Below, piece after piece: positions 8,419 through 37,409 of a stretch of 64,000 nt of DNA. A program made the position numbers and the translations under genes. Every line of letters begins with the position of its first letter. The stretch's first letter is position 1. The notes under the pieces were generated by a model that did no database searches, was not told where the DNA came from, and was given only the letters and a program-made list of their open reading frames with translations. The stretch comes from Alphaproteobacteria bacterium (lineage in GTDB: Bacteria > Pseudomonadota > Alphaproteobacteria > CBDDJK01). Location of the stretch: assembly GCA_965229675.1 (NCBI GenBank), contig OZ245897.1, positions 1,046,092 through 1,110,091 of the forward strand, given 5' to 3'.

Positions 8419-8494
8419 TGGTGCCCAAGGGCGGGTTCGAACCACCGACACAGCGATTTTCAGTCGCTTGCTCTACCGACTGAGCTACTTGGGC
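8419..8494 (-). tRNA. tRNA-Phe (anticodon GAA)
   Basis: The reverse complement reads GCCCAAGTAGCTCAGTCGGTAGAGCAAGCGACTGAAAATCGCTGTGTCGGTGGTTCGAACCCGCCCTTGGGCACCA. It folds as a cloverleaf with GTTCGAA in the T-loop, anticodon-loop CTGAAAA, and an encoded CCA. Confidence 0.9.
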
Positions 8495-18205: not shown

Positions 18206-18279
18206 TCACTTGCTTTTTGCCGTGAATTAAGATAATTGAAACGGCTTTTTAAATACCTTATTCTTCTAAACTTAATGAA

Positions 18280-20373
18280 ATGAATCGCATGAATAATTCT
18301 GCAAAAGACAGCAAAACAAATACAGCTGAGCAATCCTCCGCCAAGCAGGAAGCACCCAAACAAGGAACAACAAGTGAAACTGAAGAATCCAAACGTGATT
18401 TTTCTGGCTTGCGGGCGGCGTTTGATAAATTGCTGAAACGGGGCAAAGACCGTGGCTATATTACATTTGATGAATTAAACCAAAACTTGCCCGAAGATAA
18501 ACTTTCGTCTGAACAGATTGAAGATACGATCACCCGCTTGAACGAGATGGGAATTTCTGTGGTCGAAAATGAAGAAGAAGAGACATCGGAAAAGGATGAT
18601 GGTACCGAGGATGAACCAGATGCCGTTGGCTTAACTGGTGATCAAGAGGCCGATGAAGTTACCGAAACCAAGGATGTAGGGCGCACGGATGATCCTGTTC
18701 GGATGTATTTACGTGATATGGGGGCAGTTGAACTGCTAACCCGCGAAGGCGAAATCGCAATTGCCAAACGCATTGAATATGGTCGGGAAGATATGATTTG
18801 CGCCCTTTGTGAAAGTCCTCTTACGATGCGTAAAATTGCTGAGTGGCATGACCAGCTTGTTGAAGGTACCTTATTATTACGTGATGTGATTGATCTTGAT
18901 GCAACCATGAATGCAGGGCCTTCCTTTGAAGATGAAGAAGAGGGAGAAGAAACAGAAGAAGGAGCCGAAGAAACACTTGTGGCTAAGGCACAAGATGCAA
19001 AACGATCCGCATTGCAAGCGGGCGATTCCAATCCTGATTTAAAATCGGATCAAGAAGATGATACGTTTGATGAAGATTCTGAAGAATTGGATGAAGATGG
19101 TTTTAATAATATGTCAATGGCGGCGATGGAAAATGTCTTAAAAGTTTCGGTGCTTGAGATGTTTGAAAATATTGCTGACACTTATAAAAAATTACAAAAA
19201 TCGCAAGAAAAACGAATTGCTGCCTTGCAAGCTGGTAAAAAAGTTGCGCCTGCGACCGAGCGTAGTTACCAGCGCAATCGCGATAGTTTGGTGCAGCTGA
19301 TGCAAGAAGTTAAATTGAATGATGCGCGCATTGAACAGCTGGTAGGGGAACTTTACACCATCAATAAAGACCTGCTTGGGCTTGAAGGTAAATTGATGCG
19401 TATGGCACTCGATTGCAAAATCTCCCGCGAGGATTTTTTAAAACATTATTATAATCGTGAACTTGATCCTAATTGGTTGGAACAAGTCTCTGGTCTATCT
19501 AAGGCTTGGGGTAAGTTTGCAACCAATAATGCAACTAAGATTGAAAAAGTTCGCACAGAAATTGCCGATCTTTCCGATCAAACACGCATGCCAATTGCTG
19601 AATTTCGTCGTATTTCTCAAGCTGTCCAGCAAGGAGAGCGAGATGCAAATGAAGCCAAGAAAGAAATGATTGAGGCAAATTTACGCCTAGTCATATCCAT
19701 TGCTAAGAAATATACCAATCGCGGCTTGCAATTCCTAGATTTGATTCAAGAGGGTAATATTGGCTTGATGAAAGCGGTTGATAAATTTGAATATCGCCGT
19801 GGGTATAAATTTTCAACCTATGCAACTTGGTGGATTCGCCAAGCCATTACGCGTTCCATCGCTGATCAAGCGCGAACCATCCGCATTCCAGTGCATATGA
19901 TTGAAACAATCAATAAGCTTGTCCGCACCAGTCGCATTATGCTGAATGAGATTGGACGGGAAGCCACGCCAGAGGAGTTAGCAACCCGCTTGCATATGCC
20001 CGTTGATAAGGTGCGTAAAGTGATGAAAATTGCCAAAGAGCCAATTTCACTTGAAACCCCAGTTGGGGATGAAGAGGATTCGCATCTTGGTGATTTTATT
20101 GAAGATCGTAATGCCTTGTTGCCATCCGATTCAGCGGCGCAATCTAATTTGCGGGAAACAACAACGCGGATTTTAGCGTCCTTAACTGCGCGCGAAGAAC
20201 GTGTATTGCGGATGCGATTCGGAATTGGGATGCAGTCAGATCATACATTGGAAGAAGTTGGACAACAATTTTCAGTTACCCGTGAGCGGATTCGCCAAAT
20301 TGAGGCCAAAGCGTTACGCAAATTAAAACATCCAACACGTTCACGTAAATTACGTAGCTTTCTTGATCATTAA
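18280..20373 (+). CDS. rpoD: RNA polymerase primary sigma factor sigma-70
   Basis: Regions 1.2-4.2 are all present, including [19 protein letters not shown] and the 4.2 [31 protein letters not shown] long acidic non-conserved region is typical of alphaproteobacteria. Confidence 0.95.
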
Positions 20374-22589: not shown

Positions 22590-23780
22590 TCAGTCTTGAA
22601 CAGTTAATGTTTTTTGAAATAAGGCGAATATTGCCGCAATCAAAAGAATAATCCCACCTGCAATTAATCCAGTTGATAAATCCGCACTATAATCTGAAAG
22701 GTAACCTGCGCCGATTGGTCCTATCGTCTGGCCAATTGAAAAAGCGGTTGTATAAAGTGCAATTGCACCGCCCCATTGTGCCTTAGGTAGATTTTTCTTA
22801 CTAAATGCTGTTACTGCAGTTGGCGCAATAAGAAAAGATAGGCCAAATAAAATCGCCGAGACCATTACCCCAATCCATCCATAAAAAAATATGGGAAATA
22901 AGGTGCCAACTGCGGTTGCCAGCGAAGAAGCCGCCAAGGGAAACCCATTATTATAGCGTTGAAGCACATGCCGCCATAAGAAAGGGGCAATCATAACTGC
23001 CCCGCCGATTAATCCCCAGCATAGCACAACCATCGCCACAGGTGCGCCATTTTGTTGCAACCAAGCAATTACAAAAGTCATATAGATAATATAACCAATC
23101 GCGAAAATGAAATATCCCACTAAAGAGGGAAAAAGACGCCTTATTGGTAATCCAAATTGCGTAGATTGTGTTTGTTTTGCCGCAAAATAATTATAAAAAA
23201 ACAAACATAATAACGTTAAGCCTAGGCTGATTGAACCCAAAATAATCCATGCAGTTCCCCAAGCAGCATCACCAATAATTGCAAACATTGGGGGTAATAT
23301 CAGTGCGGTTGCTAGCATACCAGCCCCAACGCCACCAAAATAAATTGCAATGGCTAACGCATTTTTTAAAGCATGTTCTGACCAAAATGCCGCAGCAATC
23401 ACTGCCCCTGAAATAAATACAGCCGCACCGCCTATGCCAGATAATATTCGTGTTAAATTTAATAGGTAAAAATCATTGGTTAAACCTGAACCTAGTAATG
23501 AAAGCGAGGTTAATAGCATCCCAGCTAAAAATAATTTCACAGGTTGCACATGATAACTAAATAACAAAGCCAATACTGCGCCGATTAAATATCCAAGTGC
23601 GTTGGTTGTATTAATCCATCCTGCTAACGCATAAGTCCAGCCAAGCTCTGTTTTCATGGAAGGTAGGATCAAAGCATAGCCAAAGCGCGCAAAGCCATTA
23701 CCAACCGCAGGGCCAAGTGCCAGAATGATCAAAGGAATCCATGAACGCATTTTAAATTTTTTTAAGATAAACAGGAACAA
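22590..23780 (-). CDS. MFS-family transporter (probable efflux/export permease)
   Basis: 396 aa with about 12 predicted TM helices and glycine-rich loops typical of MFS. Transcribed divergently from the carrier-protein cluster together with the TetR gene. Confidence 0.7.
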   Translation of the reverse strand: MFLFILKKFKMRSWIPLIILALGPAVGNGFARFGYALILPSMKTELGWTYALAGWINTTNALGYLIGAVLALLFSYHVQPVKLFLAGMLLTSLSLLGSGLTNDFYLLNLTRILSGIGGAAVFISGAVIAAAFWSEHALKNALAIAIYFGGVGAGMLATALILPPMFAIIGDAAWGTAWIILGSISLGLTLLCLFFYNYFAAKQTQSTQFGLPIRRLFPSLVGYFIFAIGYIIYMTFVIAWLQQNGAPVAMVVLCWGLIGGAVMIAPFLWRHVLQRYNNGFPLAASSLATAVGTLFPIFFYGWIGVMVSAILFGLSFLIAPTAVTAFSKKNLPKAQWGGAIALYTTAFSIGQTIGPIGAGYLSDYSADLSTGLIAGGIILLIAAIFALFQKTLTVQD

Positions 23781-23795
23781 GAATATATTTGATTT

Positions 23796-24473
23796 TCAAG
23801 CATGATCAACAGTTTCAAAAGCGGTAGGTGCTTTAACAATCGAAAGCGCAGATTGAAGGGCATAATCAATTGGTTCAGGCGCTTGCTGAATATAAGATTC
23901 AATAATTGCGCCATCCCATAGCATAAGAATTTGTTGGGCTTTAACTTCGGCGTTTTTTGCGTTCATATATTGTAGAAGCGTTTGTTCAATTTCTCGTTTG
24001 ATCCATAATTTGTGATTACGGACAAGCTGATGCACTTCACTATCAGGATCGCTCACTTGAACGGCAGAATTCATAAACATACACCCCCTAAAATTATCTT
24101 CTTTTCTAAGGCAAAAAACAATATCAAATAAGGTTTCAATACCCAATACAGGATCATTTTTATCCTTAAAAGCTTCTTTGACCATTTCACGCCGCTTATT
24201 CAGATAACGTTCCAGCACCGCAATGGTTAAATCATGCTTATTTTTAAAAATATTATAAAGGGACATTCTGGATACATTTGCGGTTTCGATAATTTCTGTA
24301 ATTCCAACCGAAGGAATACCCTTTTGATACATTAATTTAGAGGCCGCATCAATTAACCGTTCCCTTGCCCCGCTTTGATGTTTGATAACCCTTTGATTTT
24401 TATCGTTAGGTGTATTTTGTTTAAGCGTATCTTTTTGATCAGCCTCATGCTTTTTCTTTTGTTTTTTCATCAT
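23796..24473 (-). CDS. TetR-family transcriptional regulator
   Basis: TetR_N HTH: RERLIDAASKLMYQKGIPSVGITEIIETANVSRMSLYNIFKNKHDL, with a Lys-rich N-terminal tail. Confidence 0.75.
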   Translation of the reverse strand: MMKKQKKKHEADQKDTLKQNTPNDKNQRVIKHQSGARERLIDAASKLMYQKGIPSVGITEIIETANVSRMSLYNIFKNKHDLTIAVLERYLNKRREMVKEAFKDKNDPVLGIETLFDIVFCLRKEDNFRGCMFMNSAVQVSDPDSEVHQLVRNHKLWIKREIEQTLLQYMNAKNAEVKAQQILMLWDGAIIESYIQQAPEPIDYALQSALSIVKAPTAFETVDHA

Positions 24474-24748: not shown

Positions 24749-25030
24749 ATGGACGATGCTATTAAAAAAATTCAATCCTATATTGAAGCAAAAAATCCAG
24801 AATATACTAATCTTTCTGTGAATACCGATATTATTGAAAATCGCTTGATCGACTCCCTCCAATTTGTCGAGTTTGTTCTATATATTGAAGAAGTTGCTGA
24901 AGTCACAATTGATATGGAACTTGCTGATATTGAAGATTTTCGTAGCCTTAATAACCTTACTGCTTTTATCGATCGCTTACGACAAGAAGAAAGCGCTACA
25001 GCCCCCACCCTAAGCGAGGTTGAAGCTTAA
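24749..25030 (+). CDS. Acyl/peptidyl carrier protein (PP-binding, ACP-like)
   Basis: 93 aa, acidic. RLIDSLQFVEFVLYIEE matches the ACP phosphopantetheine-attachment region (DSL, with Ser as the presumed 4'-PP site). Confidence 0.7.
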   Translation: MDDAIKKIQSYIEAKNPEYTNLSVNTDIIENRLIDSLQFVEFVLYIEEVAEVTIDMELADIEDFRSLNNLTAFIDRLRQEESATAPTLSEVEA

Positions 25031-25484
25031 AAAAATGCAATTTGCCGAGGATTATAAAAAGGGTGATATTTATTACTTGGGTAGTTATCAGCTTGAAGCA
25101 GAAGAAATGATTACATTTGCAACCCAATATGATCCACAACCTTACCATTTAAGCGAGGAAGAAGGTGCAAAATCTCCTTTTAATGGTCTGATTGCAAGCG
25201 GTTGGAATATTGCTGGTATATGGATGAAGCTTTATGTCACCCATATGCTGGACGGCGCGAAGGTTTTTGGCTCCCCAGGTGTGGACGAAGTTCGGTTTAA
25301 ACAACCTGTGCGCCCAGGTCAAATCCTAGAAGGTAAGGTTGAGATTTTAGACCGTTTGCCTTCTTTTTCAGATAAAAGCATTATGATCATCCGTAAATAT
25401 GGAACGTTGAGCGTTGCGGGCGATGACCGTCCTGTTTTCAGCCTTATTCTTAATAGTCGCTTTGCAAAAAGGACATATTACTGA
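25020..25484 (+). CDS. MaoC-like hot-dog fold protein (dehydratase/hydratase or thioesterase-like)
   Basis: 154 aa. It has the MaoC signature region FNGLIASGWNIAG...PVRPGQILEG. Confidence 0.65.
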   Translation: MKLKKMQFAEDYKKGDIYYLGSYQLEAEEMITFATQYDPQPYHLSEEEGAKSPFNGLIASGWNIAGIWMKLYVTHMLDGAKVFGSPGVDEVRFKQPVRPGQILEGKVEILDRLPSFSDKSIMIIRKYGTLSVAGDDRPVFSLILNSRFAKRTYY

Positions 25485-26350
25485 TGAAGGCTGTTTCTTA
25501 TACGGCACAATGGACTGCAGCAATCAGGGCGCGTGAAAGCACACTTGCCGAAGGGCGTTTGTTCAATGATCAGCTGGCAGAAGAGCTTGCACAACCAGAT
25601 GGTTTTCGCTTACTTGAAAAATATAAAGGTGGAGGTGTACAAGAATTTGTGATCATTCGTACCCGCTATTTCGATGACGCGATTCAGGCAGCATTAGATC
25701 ATGATCAATTTCGTCAGATTGTTTTTATTGCAGCTGGCATGGATACCAGAGCTTTTCGTCTAAACTGGCCAGATGGTGCAGTGCTTTATGAGATTGATCA
25801 TGAAGGTTTACTTGAAGAAAAGCAAAAACGCCTGTCAAAATTGGGGGCATCGCCAAACGTAAAACGGATTGAGGTCGCAGCCGATTTTTCACAGCCATGG
25901 ATTAATTCTCTTATCAATGCAGGCTTCTTACGTGATCAAAAAACTTTATGGGTTGCTGAAGGTTTATTATTTTTTCTTGAACAAAAGGAAGTTATCGACC
26001 TGCTTGAAGTAACGGGTGGGGCTTCTGCGCCTCATAGTCGATTGTTAACGGATATGAATAATAATATTTTGTTGCAAAGCCCGATGAGTCGATTTTTCAT
26101 GGAAACACTTAAAAGAGATGGGACACCATGGCGATTTGGTACCAATGCCCCCAGTGAATTTTTAGGCAGCCATCATTGGCAGGTGATTGAGCTTAAAGAG
26201 CCAGGGCAAACCAAGGCAGGGCTTACGCGATGGCCCTATGAAACCCACGATAGTGCAATAAAAAATGTGCCAAGAAGCTGGCTTATTCAAGCGCAGATTG
26301 ATCACAACCGAACATTATTTAATAATGAAAGAGAGGGTATATGCGCATAG
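25484..26350 (+). CDS. SAM-dependent methyltransferase of the LCM/TcmP (putative O-/carboxyl-methyltransferase) family
   Basis: TRYFDD...FIAAGMDTRAFRL...YEIDHEG...WVAEGLLFFL match the PF04072 Leu-carboxyl methyltransferase-like family. Confidence 0.7.
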   Translation: MKAVSYTAQWTAAIRARESTLAEGRLFNDQLAEELAQPDGFRLLEKYKGGGVQEFVIIRTRYFDDAIQAALDHDQFRQIVFIAAGMDTRAFRLNWPDGAVLYEIDHEGLLEEKQKRLSKLGASPNVKRIEVAADFSQPWINSLINAGFLRDQKTLWVAEGLLFFLEQKEVIDLLEVTGGASAPHSRLLTDMNNNILLQSPMSRFFMETLKRDGTPWRFGTNAPSEFLGSHHWQVIELKEPGQTKAGLTRWPYETHDSAIKNVPRSWLIQAQIDHNRTLFNNEREGICA

Positions 26351-27201
26351 TCGGAGGGTGGCTTGATGTTCAGCATCGCCTTGAAAAAACGCTTGATACT
26401 TTGTTTGAGCTACCCACGCATCAACATATTCACTTTGATTCCATTTTATCGATTGAGGAATTAGATAAGATTGATTATGCGCGTAACTTCCCGCATCTGA
26501 CTTGCCTTGGTTGCGCCTTGGCAGATAAAACCCATCAAGGGCTTTCGGATAATGAACTTAGCTTGAAATCCGCCGCCAGAATAGGAAATACAAGATTTGC
26601 GCTTTTACCAGCGACTTGTTTTAAAGTCTATCTTTCACTTGAAGGATTGGAGCTTAACCATAGCCATCATCTTGGCTGTAGTGCTTCATGTTTTCGCAAT
26701 GAAGACAAGGCGTTGGATGACTATCGTGGTCTTAATTTTACGATGAAAGAGTTTGTTTGCGTTGGTAATCAGATGGATGCAAAACGCCATATTGAACAAG
26801 GCATAGCACGCGTTAGTTTGTTATTTTAACGGCTTGGTATTCCGTTTAATATTGAAAATGCCATGGATCCTTTCTTTGATAATAAAGCTTCTCAGGCGAT
26901 TCTTTCAAAGCTTTCCCCAACAAAACGGGAATTCATATTTGATGGCCATGCCGTGGCTTCAGCGAACTTTCACCGCAATTTCTTTGGTGAAAAATTATCA
27001 ATTACCCTTAATGGTGAAGCAGTTAATACAAGCTGCGTTGCTTTTGGTATTGAACGATGGCTAGCAATGCTCCGCCAGATTTTTGTCAAACCAGAAAATG
27101 CGCTTTATGCCTTGAACGAATGTATGGTTGATTACCATATTGAAACCGTTCTTGGCACCTCTTCACGACAAGAAAAAGTTACAGAAGGAATAACAAAATG
27201 A
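26341..27201 (+). pseudogene. Class II aminoacyl-tRNA-synthetase (SerRS)-like amino acid:[carrier protein] ligase, interrupted by a single in-frame TAA at 26827-26829
   Basis: Both halves are in the same frame. The upstream half has SerRS motif 2 (SCFRNEDKALDDYRGLNFTMKEFVCVG, compare [26 protein letters not shown]). The downstream half has motif 3 (ITLNGEAVNTSCVAFGIERWLAML, compare TLNGSGLAVGRTLVA). There is no N-terminal tRNA-binding arm, and the total is about 285 aa. Confidence 0.6.
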
Positions 27202-28067
27202 TTGAAGCTAAACGGATGGATCGCCTGATTTCTCTTTCACATTCACATAAGGAATCATGTGATATTTACACACAGTTTGATTGGCCAGAAGCCCTTGCAG
27301 TTGATCGTTTGTGGTGCGATGAAGACCTGCTAACAACATATGACACAGAAATTCATGCACAATTAACCGATGAACAAAAATATCATTTAAGCAAGTGGGA
27401 GGCGATTAATTTTTGTAGCCTTAATGTTCATGGGATTAAAACGGTTTTGGAATTTGTTAGCCGCATTATCTATAGCCGCCGCTATGAACCCATTTCAGAA
27501 TATTTGCATTTATTTTTGTCCGAAGAAAATGATCATATGTGGTTTTTTGCAAAATTCTGTTTGATGTATGGTGGTAAGCTTTATCCTGCTTTCGCCTTTC
27601 CTGTTGGCAAGCCAAATAATCCTGTTGAAAATGACCTATATATGTTCGCAAGCACATTGATTTTTGAGGAGTTTGTCGATTTTTATAATCATCGTGTTGG
27701 CAAAAATAAGGAGGTTCACCCTGTTATTCAAGCGATTAATCATCACCACCACATTGATGAATCGCGTCATGTGTCTTTTGGCAGAGAGATTGTTAAAAGC
27801 CTATTTGATGAGCTATGTGAACAAAATGAAGACCCAGAACAACGGGAACGCATTAGCAAAACCGTTAAAGGGTTAATTGATCATTTTACGGGGCTAATGT
27901 ATAATGCCCGTGCTTATAAAGATGCAGATATTGCGCTTGGTTTAGGGTTTAAAACAGCGGCCGCCCTTCGTAATCACCTTCGTAATGATCAGCAACGCAT
28001 TCCCCATCATCATCGCTGGTTTAATCGTACTGAACGTTATTTTGAACGGATTGGACTATTTTCATAA
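27198..28067 (+). CDS. AurF-like diiron (ferritin-like) oxygenase / N-oxygenase family protein
   Basis: 289 aa with spaced carboxylate/His motifs EENDH, IFEEF...NH and IDESRH (E/DExxH), as in PF11583 p-aminobenzoate N-oxygenase AurF/CmlI. His-rich segments HHHH are also present. Confidence 0.55.
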   Translation: MIEAKRMDRLISLSHSHKESCDIYTQFDWPEALAVDRLWCDEDLLTTYDTEIHAQLTDEQKYHLSKWEAINFCSLNVHGIKTVLEFVSRIIYSRRYEPISEYLHLFLSEENDHMWFFAKFCLMYGGKLYPAFAFPVGKPNNPVENDLYMFASTLIFEEFVDFYNHRVGKNKEVHPVIQAINHHHHIDESRHVSFGREIVKSLFDELCEQNEDPEQRERISKTVKGLIDHFTGLMYNARAYKDADIALGLGFKTAAALRNHLRNDQQRIPHHHRWFNRTERYFERIGLFS

Positions 28068-28120: not shown

Positions 28121-28555
28121 ATGAAAATTACGATTGATAAAGTTTCGTCATCAGAAGCGTTTCAAAAATGTATGGATATCCGTATTGCCGTTTTTGTTGA
28201 AGAACAAAAGGTACCTATGGAAGAAGAAGTAGATGGAAAAGATAGTGCTTGCGATCATTATTTATTAAGCACTGATGATTCTCCCATTGGTACAGCACGG
28301 ATATTTTTAACAGGCAATATTGCTAAAATTGGACGGGTTGCGATAGTAAAAGATTATCGGGGAAAAGGATTGGGGCGTGCCTTAATGCAACATATGATTA
28401 CTGATATTCGCACAAACCATGAAATAGAAAAAATAAAATTAAGTTCGCAGACCTATGCCATCCCGTTTTATGAAGCGTTAGGATTTATGGTTTGCAGCGA
28501 TGAATATATGGACGCTAAAATTCCCCATAAGGATATGGAATTTATCATATGTTAA
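28121..28555 (+). CDS. GNAT-family N-acyltransferase
   Basis: 144 aa. The acetyl-CoA binding motif VAIVKDYRGKGLGRALM (Q/RxxGxG/A) is present. Confidence 0.7.
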   Translation: MKITIDKVSSSEAFQKCMDIRIAVFVEEQKVPMEEEVDGKDSACDHYLLSTDDSPIGTARIFLTGNIAKIGRVAIVKDYRGKGLGRALMQHMITDIRTNHEIEKIKLSSQTYAIPFYEALGFMVCSDEYMDAKIPHKDMEFIIC

Positions 28556-37335: not shown

Positions 37336-37409
37336 GCGGGTGTAGCTTAGTGGTAAAGCCCCAGCCTTCCAAGCTGGTTAGGAGGGTTCGATTCCCTTCA
37401 CCCGCTCCA
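37336..37409 (+). tRNA. tRNA-Gly (anticodon TCC)
   Basis: GCGGGTGTAGCTTAGTGGTAAAGCCCCAGCCTTCCAAGCTGGTTAGGAGGGTTCGATTCCCTTCACCCGCTCCA. The anticodon loop is CTTCCAA, the T-loop is GTTCGATTC, and CCA is encoded. Confidence 0.9.

Follow-up and report, generated by a model that had tools for sequence, protein, structure and literature searches.

An AurF/CmlI-type diiron oxygenase in a widespread cassette with a carrier protein and an aminoacyl-tRNA synthetase-like ligase in an alphaproteobacterial genome

AurF of Streptomyces thioluteus and CmlI of S. venezuelae are diiron arylamine N-oxygenases with a DExxH motif. Relatives of these enzymes are known from pathways with carrier-bound amino acids – HamC and PvfB, AurF homologs of Proteobacteria, oxidize valine tethered on HamD/PvfC (PMC11659414), and the enteromycin-class route to glycine-derived nitronates uses a carrier-bound amino acid, a diiron oxygenase and an O-methyltransferase (summarized in PMC9967187). 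The gene described here lies at 27198–28067 on the forward strand of a 64,000-nucleotide stretch (the window) of the genome of an alphaproteobacterium (contig OZ245897.1, positions 1,046,092–1,110,091). Unlike AurF and CmlI, it has no arylamine pathway nearby; its partners are an acyl carrier protein (ACP) and a ligase resembling class II aminoacyl-tRNA synthetases (aaRS), and these partners make an aliphatic amino acid, tethered to the carrier, the probable substrate. The gene product is a genuine AurF/CmlI-type two-iron oxygenase. We put a probability of about 0.6 on the reading that it is part of a compact thiotemplate cassette and N-oxidizes a carrier-bound amino acid, all steps of which we infer.

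The gene is an ATG-to-TAA open reading frame (ORF) encoding 289 aa. Its coordinates are exactly those of an earlier note, made from the sequence alone, and all of the motifs quoted there are present: EENDH at residues 109–113, EEF...NH at 157–165, DESRH at 187–191, HHHH at 182–185 and HHHRW at 270–274. The protein matches the Pfam AurF model (PF11583) with 98.2 bits (E 6e-28), well above the gathering cut-off of 29.6 bits, and residues 13–286 cover model positions 12–282 of 282. A single-sequence search found 116 homologs and a profile search found 1408; all of the named ones are annotated as ‘diiron oxygenase’ or ‘AurF’, and public annotation passes on the name ‘p-aminobenzoate N-oxygenase AurF’. 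A look-up of the exact oxygenase protein gave no hit. No NCBIfam model matches the oxygenase, and a single-sequence phmmer search of PDB chains found neither AurF nor CmlI nor any other solved structure. Since searches of the PDB by sequence gave no match to AurF, or a weak one, a structural comparison was needed. An AlphaFold2 model made from the alignment (pLDDT 95.4, pTM 0.92) was compared with the PDB by Foldseek, which placed AurF (TM 0.64) and CmlI (0.60) at the top, above R2lox (ca. 0.5) and stearoyl-ACP desaturase (0.38). The predicted fold is helical and ferritin-like, nearest to AurF/CmlI and not to R2, R2lox, desaturase or MiaE. With AurF and CmlI first in this ranking, the better match to a desaturase or to MiaE that would have refuted the earlier note did not occur, and its assignment of the protein to the AurF/CmlI family is upheld by the Pfam score, the fold and the metal ligands alike.

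Conservation of the ligands was read from an alignment of 55 homologs. Eleven residues are invariant in this set: E68, E109, E110, H113, E157, E158, H184, D187, E188, R190 and H191. The predicted metal ligands are E68, E110, H113, E157 (or E158), H184, E188 and H191, a pattern of E, ExxH, E, HxxxExxH, with E109 and D187 as predicted second-sphere residues. In the profile-to-PDB alignment H184, E188 and H191 fall on AurF H223, E227 and H230, and E157 falls on AurF E196; the oxygenase therefore has a set of three histidines and four carboxylates. The seventh histidine, at the position of AurF H223, is characteristic of N-oxygenases among the ferritin-like diiron oxygenases (FDO; PMC13061610), and the predicted seven-ligand set, with this extra N-oxygenase-type histidine, is kept in all 55 sequences. 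D187, the equivalent of AurF D226, is invariant as well. The histidine-rich stretches had been called unusual in the earlier note. This is not the case – H184 serves as a ligand, 53 of the 55 sequences have H185 and 43 have H271; H182, H183, H270 and H272 are lineage-specific. A variant motif, HHxDEGRH, is found in the Okeania sp. locus L069 and the Marinobacter sp. locus L037, where ligase and ACP were undetected nearby (the L037 contig is short); these two may represent a sub-branch with different partners.

In the window the oxygenase gene is the fifth of six on one strand, which encode, in order, the ACP, a MaoC-like protein, an LCM-family methyltransferase, the ligase, the oxygenase and a GNAT acyltransferase. 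The four genes from MaoC to the oxygenase are joined by start/stop overlaps. Scanning genomes, one for each species, gave at least 201 relatives of the oxygenase; 80 were kept and, together with five loci found earlier, make up the 85 loci counted here. In 82 of these loci the oxygenase has a homolog of the ligase as a neighbor, and in 80 it has an ACP; two of the three loci with no ligase match (L028 and L037) end at most ca. 0.7 kb from the oxygenase gene. The reverse search gave the same picture. A profile of the ligase retrieved 80 metagenome loci, 27 of which had flanks of 1.5 kb or more on each side and were assessed; 26 of the 27 encode the oxygenase, usually in the order oxygenase-ACP-ligase. 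In addition, one protein (P0087, at L093:2891–4039) is a natural fusion of an AurF domain with a C-terminal PP-binding domain. Its neighbors are a methyltransferase, an MFS transporter, two alpha/beta hydrolases and an AMP-binding enzyme, the sole candidate loader on that contig. The constancy of the trio, whether the search starts from the oxygenase or from the ligase, and the existence of the fusion strongly support a carrier-tethered substrate, and the proposal in the earlier note of a carrier-protein-tethered amine is thus supported. Another apparent fusion, of AurF with a nitronate monooxygenase (NMO)-family protein (P0127, 552 aa, 10 member sequences), was rejected: its junction or linker and its C-terminus look out-of-frame, and it is probably a frameshift artifact of adjacent genes.

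The trio is found in a broad range of hosts. Among Alpha- and Betaproteobacteria these include Salinarimonas, Bradyrhizobium, Agrobacterium vitis, Azospirillum, Tistrella, Achromobacter, Variovorax and Paraburkholderia; other hosts are many Streptomyces, Micromonospora and Kitasatospora, as well as Blastocatellia (Acidobacteria), Melainabacteria and others. The gene had been described as lying outside the usual context of its family, a claim that must be dropped: the cassette is widespread from Proteobacteria to Streptomyces, and common rather than exotic.

These data bear on two further explanations. The oxygenase could be a classical arylamine N-oxygenase like AurF and CmlI, acting on a free substrate, with the ligase and ACP nearby only by chance. 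AurF and CmlI are its best structural matches, and the name passed on by public annotation says the same, but this is very improbable given that no aminobenzoate or aminophenylalanine genes are among the flanking genes examined, that the three genes stay together in searches from either side, that a fusion to a carrier domain exists and that identity to AurF is only ca. 12%. Another AurF/CmlI homolog known from Proteobacteria is DnfA (PMC11440038), and the window enzyme could accordingly take part in oxidation of inorganic or glutamine-derived nitrogen, forming or oxidizing hydroxylamine, and not in secondary metabolism. Kinship with DnfA (Dirammox) was set aside, as the DnfB and DnfC partners are not present and a carrier protein and ligase are conserved instead; we give this explanation almost no weight.

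The ligase gene (26341–27201, +) overlaps the start of the oxygenase gene. Its product is a relative of Bll0957, an amino acid:carrier protein ligase of solved structure (PDB 3mey; phmmer E 8.8e-21), and keeps the PAxC, CFRxE, M(K/R)E and CVAFGxER motifs. The ‘aminoacyl-carrier-protein loading enzyme’ that the earlier note placed next to the oxygenase is therefore confirmed as a homolog of characterized ligases. Its core is that of a class II aaRS, motifs 2 and 3 included, and it has no tRNA-binding domain. C93, R119/E121, E137, C232 and G236/E238/R239 are invariant in nine members of the subfamily, and the Cys/Glu/Cys positions are those that we take, following Mocibob et al. 2010, to be the zinc site. 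The core, these three residues and an adjoining ACP are shared with Bll0957 and Atu2573. The window ligase differs from both in belonging to a separate subfamily that is nearly always paired with a diiron oxygenase, and in being interrupted by a stop codon. Its two fragments score 48.4 and 32.9 bits against NCBIfam NF005479, far below the equivalog cut-off of 357, which makes the subfamily a distant and distinct one. The amino acid:carrier protein ligases characterized so far load glycine or alanine, and their biological role was still called unknown in a 2022 review (PMC9437257).

The stop is a TAA codon in frame at 26827–26829 (codon 163), which the earlier note did not mention. It splits the ligase into 162 aa and 112 aa, and two pieces of these lengths are called on the public 2.47-Mb contig to which the window belongs. 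Two contigs of one metagenome, L001 and L002, carry the same cassette at 97–98% DNA identity, with GAA (Glu) at this site and an intact ligase of 286 aa. The TAA is the sole difference from L001 in the bin 26750–26999, and the following 250 bases are identical; being a single isolated SNP, the TAA must have arisen recently or be an error. Because the ligase carries a nonsense codon, the pathway has probably been inactivated recently in the window genome, unless the stop is a sequencing error.

If the ligase that supplies the substrate is broken, the oxygenase in this genome may be a functionless remnant of a decaying cassette, which we consider a serious possibility though not the probable one. 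The TAA and the fragmented gene in the public record fit with it, and other copies of the cassette are also damaged: L002, flanked by insertion sequence (IS) elements, has a truncated ACP, and in the related symbiont Ca. Spongiihabitans sp. L007 (6295–7942, on a complete chromosome) the LCM and ligase genes are each split across two frames. The L007 oxygenase is intact, as are LCM and ligase in the related L006 genome, and the split genes of L007 reflect either gene decay or assembly errors. What speaks against decay is that the stop is one isolated SNP, hence recent or erroneous, that the other cassette genes are intact and that the oxygenase has all of its ligands. Between the window and L001, 27 of the 28 nucleotide differences in the oxygenase gene are synonymous and one is non-synonymous, so that the gene has been under purifying selection.

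The genes that accompany the trio divide the 85 loci into types. An LCM methyltransferase is encoded in 34 loci and an NMO-family flavoprotein in 28, and the two never occur together. Of the 28 loci with MaoC, 27 also have LCM and none has NMO. A Methyltransf_2 O-methyltransferase is present in seven loci, six of which have NMO. The 23 loci with neither LCM nor NMO include several Streptomyces clusters with a fatty acyl-AMP ligase (FAAL), an R2-like protein, ketoacyl-ACP synthase III (KAS III) and a thioesterase. One Streptomyces cluster of the LCM type adds a Cys/Met-family pyridoxal phosphate (PLP) enzyme, a second methyltransferase, a phosphopantetheinyl transferase (PPTase), an S-adenosylmethionine (SAM) synthetase and a PfkB kinase. 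The window cassette is of the LCM and MaoC type, and its methyltransferase is a candidate for O-methylation of the oxidized intermediate. O-methylation and ‘denitrification’ are reportedly named as alternatives in the title of a paper by He and Ryan (Nature Chemistry, 2021). The split between methyltransferase and NMO fits that title closely, and the NMO type would be the denitrification branch. Mutual exclusion of LCM and NMO is also better explained by N-oxygenation than by chemistry at a C–H bond.

Such C–H chemistry is the main rival to N-oxygenation. The diiron enzyme would then functionalize a C–H bond of what the carrier holds, by beta-hydroxylation, by desaturation or, in the manner of CylC/NocO, by halogenation, and MaoC would dehydrate or otherwise process the product. 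The MaoC protein is a hydratase/dehydratase with an intact Asp/His motif, and it tracks the LCM-type cassettes. The dimetal halogenases CylC and NocO are AurF-like as well, with a diiron site that has three His ligands and with acyl substrates bound to an ACP (PMC12101540), and they have the AurF-like fold, HxxDExxH and a carrier-tethered substrate in common with the window oxygenase; no CylC-type structure was among the PDB matches, so the structural ranking is silent on how close the two are. The halogenases are mostly cyanobacterial, are loaded by FAAL enzymes, have a predicted open coordination site and are defined by QExxH (PMC12101540), whereas EExxH is found in 84 of the 85 family members of the window oxygenase, the last being a sequence that the search pattern did not match. 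At the position of AurF E196 the glutamate is invariant, the loader of the cassette is an amino acid ligase with no FAAL in the window operon, and the choice between methyltransferase and NMO partners suits N-oxygenation better. C–H functionalization is therefore unlikely.

Under the preferred reading, N-oxygenation of a carrier-bound amino acid, the ligase would use ATP to activate a small amino acid, most likely glycine, and pass it to the phosphopantetheine arm of the 93-aa ACP. The diiron enzyme, once reduced and O2-activated, would oxidize the alpha-amino nitrogen of the aminoacyl-S-ACP via hydroxylamine and nitroso states. The end point of this oxidation could be a nitro or nitronate group (aci-nitroacyl-S-ACP), or the reaction may halt at the hydroxylamine or oxime. 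The LCM-family enzyme would O-methylate the oxidized product, the MaoC hotdog protein and/or the GNAT protein would process or off-load the thioester, and the MFS_4 pump would export the product under TetR control. The family, fold and ligand set, the homology of the ligase and the joint inheritance of the trio are established, while the amino acid, the oxidation state and the parts played by MaoC and GNAT are inferred.

Several observations weigh against this reading. The profile of 55 homologs found AurF in the PDB with an E value of only 0.55, compared to 0.006 for R2lox, and the oxygenase is only 12–16% identical to AurF and CmlI. Its motif is EExxH where theirs is DExxH: the position of AurF D135, which is Gln in the halogenases, holds an invariant glutamate (E109). 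A route through a glycine nitronate does not account for the MaoC dehydratase, which a beta-hydroxy intermediate would fit better. The NMO-like partners of the other cassette type have FabK enoyl-ACP reductase as their best match, a weak one, and may therefore be nitronate monooxygenases or FabK-type reductases. The stop codon in the window ligase counts here as well.

Compared to the described systems, the window cassette is possibly a loader variant of known N-oxygenation cassettes. The enteromycin-class route has the same logic, a likeness drawn by description. The akazaoxime cluster loads its amino acid with an adenylation and peptidyl carrier protein (A-PCP) unit of a nonribosomal peptide synthetase (NRPS), in contrast to the free ACP and class II aaRS-like ligase of the window, which are joined by the LCM methyltransferase, MaoC and GNAT. 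The window cassette has no NRPS adenylation domain as loader; only for the P0087 fusion variant is an AMP-binding enzyme the candidate. PvfB, HamC and MgoC of Pseudomonas and Burkholderia, compared by description, work with a multidomain NRPS partner and with heme oxygenase-like diiron oxidase (HDO), cupin and cyclase proteins, unlike the window enzyme. In the lipothrenin cluster of Streptomyces aureus, the diiron N-oxygenase LitN is required for N-hydroxy-threonine, and its operon also encodes the 85-aa LitK and the essential 311-aa LitL, both described as ‘hypothetical’. By description, the FAAL, R2-like, ACP, GDSL and KAS III genes around lit resemble the surroundings of the trio in the Streptomyces loci L086, L087 and L092, although the gene order differs. 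The order LitK/LitL/LitN was in none of the loci examined, and LitK and LitL are at most candidates for an ACP and a ligase. In L086, L087, L091 and L092 (Streptomyces/Kitasatospora) the trio lies amid a FAAL, an R2-like diiron protein, a second ACP and a GDSL lipase, and these clusters, which are closely similar to lit, also hold a thioesterase, KAS III and a halogenase-like flavoprotein.

The remaining genes of the cassette are as follows. The free-standing ACP (24749–25030, +; 93 aa) has its phosphopantetheine site at Ser36 in an IDSLQ motif; it matches PP-binding_2 and PP-binding below their cut-offs, and several NCBIfam ACP models. The MaoC-like hotdog protein of the hydratase/dehydratase type (25035–25484, +; PF01575, 52 bits) has the Asp-x4-His motif YDPQPYH. 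The SAM-dependent methyltransferase of the LCM/TIGR00027 family (25484–26350, +) matches PF04072 with 153 bits and TIGR00027 with 196 bits. The GNAT acyltransferase (28121–28555, +; Acetyltransf_10, _1 and _7 matches) is kept with the cassette in L001 and in the IS-flanked L002 and is found in none of the other 83 loci. Its role is uncertain and could be acyl transfer off the carrier or self-protection; a GNAT that depends on a carrier has a precedent in SbzI (PMC11685415).

Two genes lie upstream on the reverse strand. A TetR-family protein (23796–24473, −; TetR_N match), divergent from the cassette and in the same position in L001, is likely the local regulator, and an MFS_4 (YbfB-type) transporter (22590–23780, −; PF06779, 201 bits) is likely the exporter of the product. 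Salinarimonas chemoclinalis and Ca. Spongiihabitans likewise have an MFS_4 gene next to the cassette, and MFS genes are present in other cassette variants too. A scan for promoters and terminators gave fewer promoter-like sites than shuffled sequences and no convincing terminator. In a search of the window with Rfam, two tRNAs (8422–8494, −, and 37336–37406, +) were the only matches, with no riboswitch or other RNA near the cassette. The GC content is about 0.36–0.46. The alphaproteobacterial origin proposed earlier is supported by RpoD, for which the best named matches are of the Alphaproteobacteria/Rhodospirillales type with 62–72% identity.

The cassette appears to be mobile. In L002 (6844–11359), from the same metagenome as L001, the genes from ACP to GNAT lie directly behind DDE transposase genes in another genomic context; homology to the window begins only at 24807, and the N-terminus of the ACP is replaced. 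Homology between the window and L001 stops at ca. 28544, just past the GNAT gene. The window goes on with ybeY-phoH-miaB, and L001 with genes of mobile elements, among them an integrase and a Toprim/primase-like gene (L001:11537–16930). The differences between the window and L001, which are 98% identical, are clustered in 18250–20000 and 26000–26500, with long identical stretches between; 36 fall in 18500–18750, within rpoD, and 47 in 26000–26500. This suggests patches of recombination.

In total, the cassette is widespread, with matches in over 200 genomes at the species level and in hundreds of contigs from metagenomes, and most likely the amino group of a carrier-bound amino acid is oxidized, a chemistry already published. 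For the window genome this means that the AurF-type reading is right, that the context is a common one and that the pathway may be off through a nonsense mutation. Beyond this we suggest, tentatively and as a doubtful proposition, that the trio defines the physiological role of a subfamily of aaRS-like amino acid:carrier protein ligases, and that the type with LCM and MaoC, with or without MFS_4, in the window and in other Proteobacteria makes an undescribed, exported N-oxygenated molecule such as an O-methyl nitronate, unlike those of the enteromycin class. If the proposed mechanism holds, there would be a widespread, NRPS-independent route from an amino acid to an aliphatic nitro compound or nitronate, or to a hydroxylamine. 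A subfamily of carrier-protein ligases that resemble tRNA synthetases would have a concrete job, one that links such ligases to N-oxygenation, and the methyltransferase and NMO cassettes would lend themselves well to testing the published split between O-methylation and denitrification.

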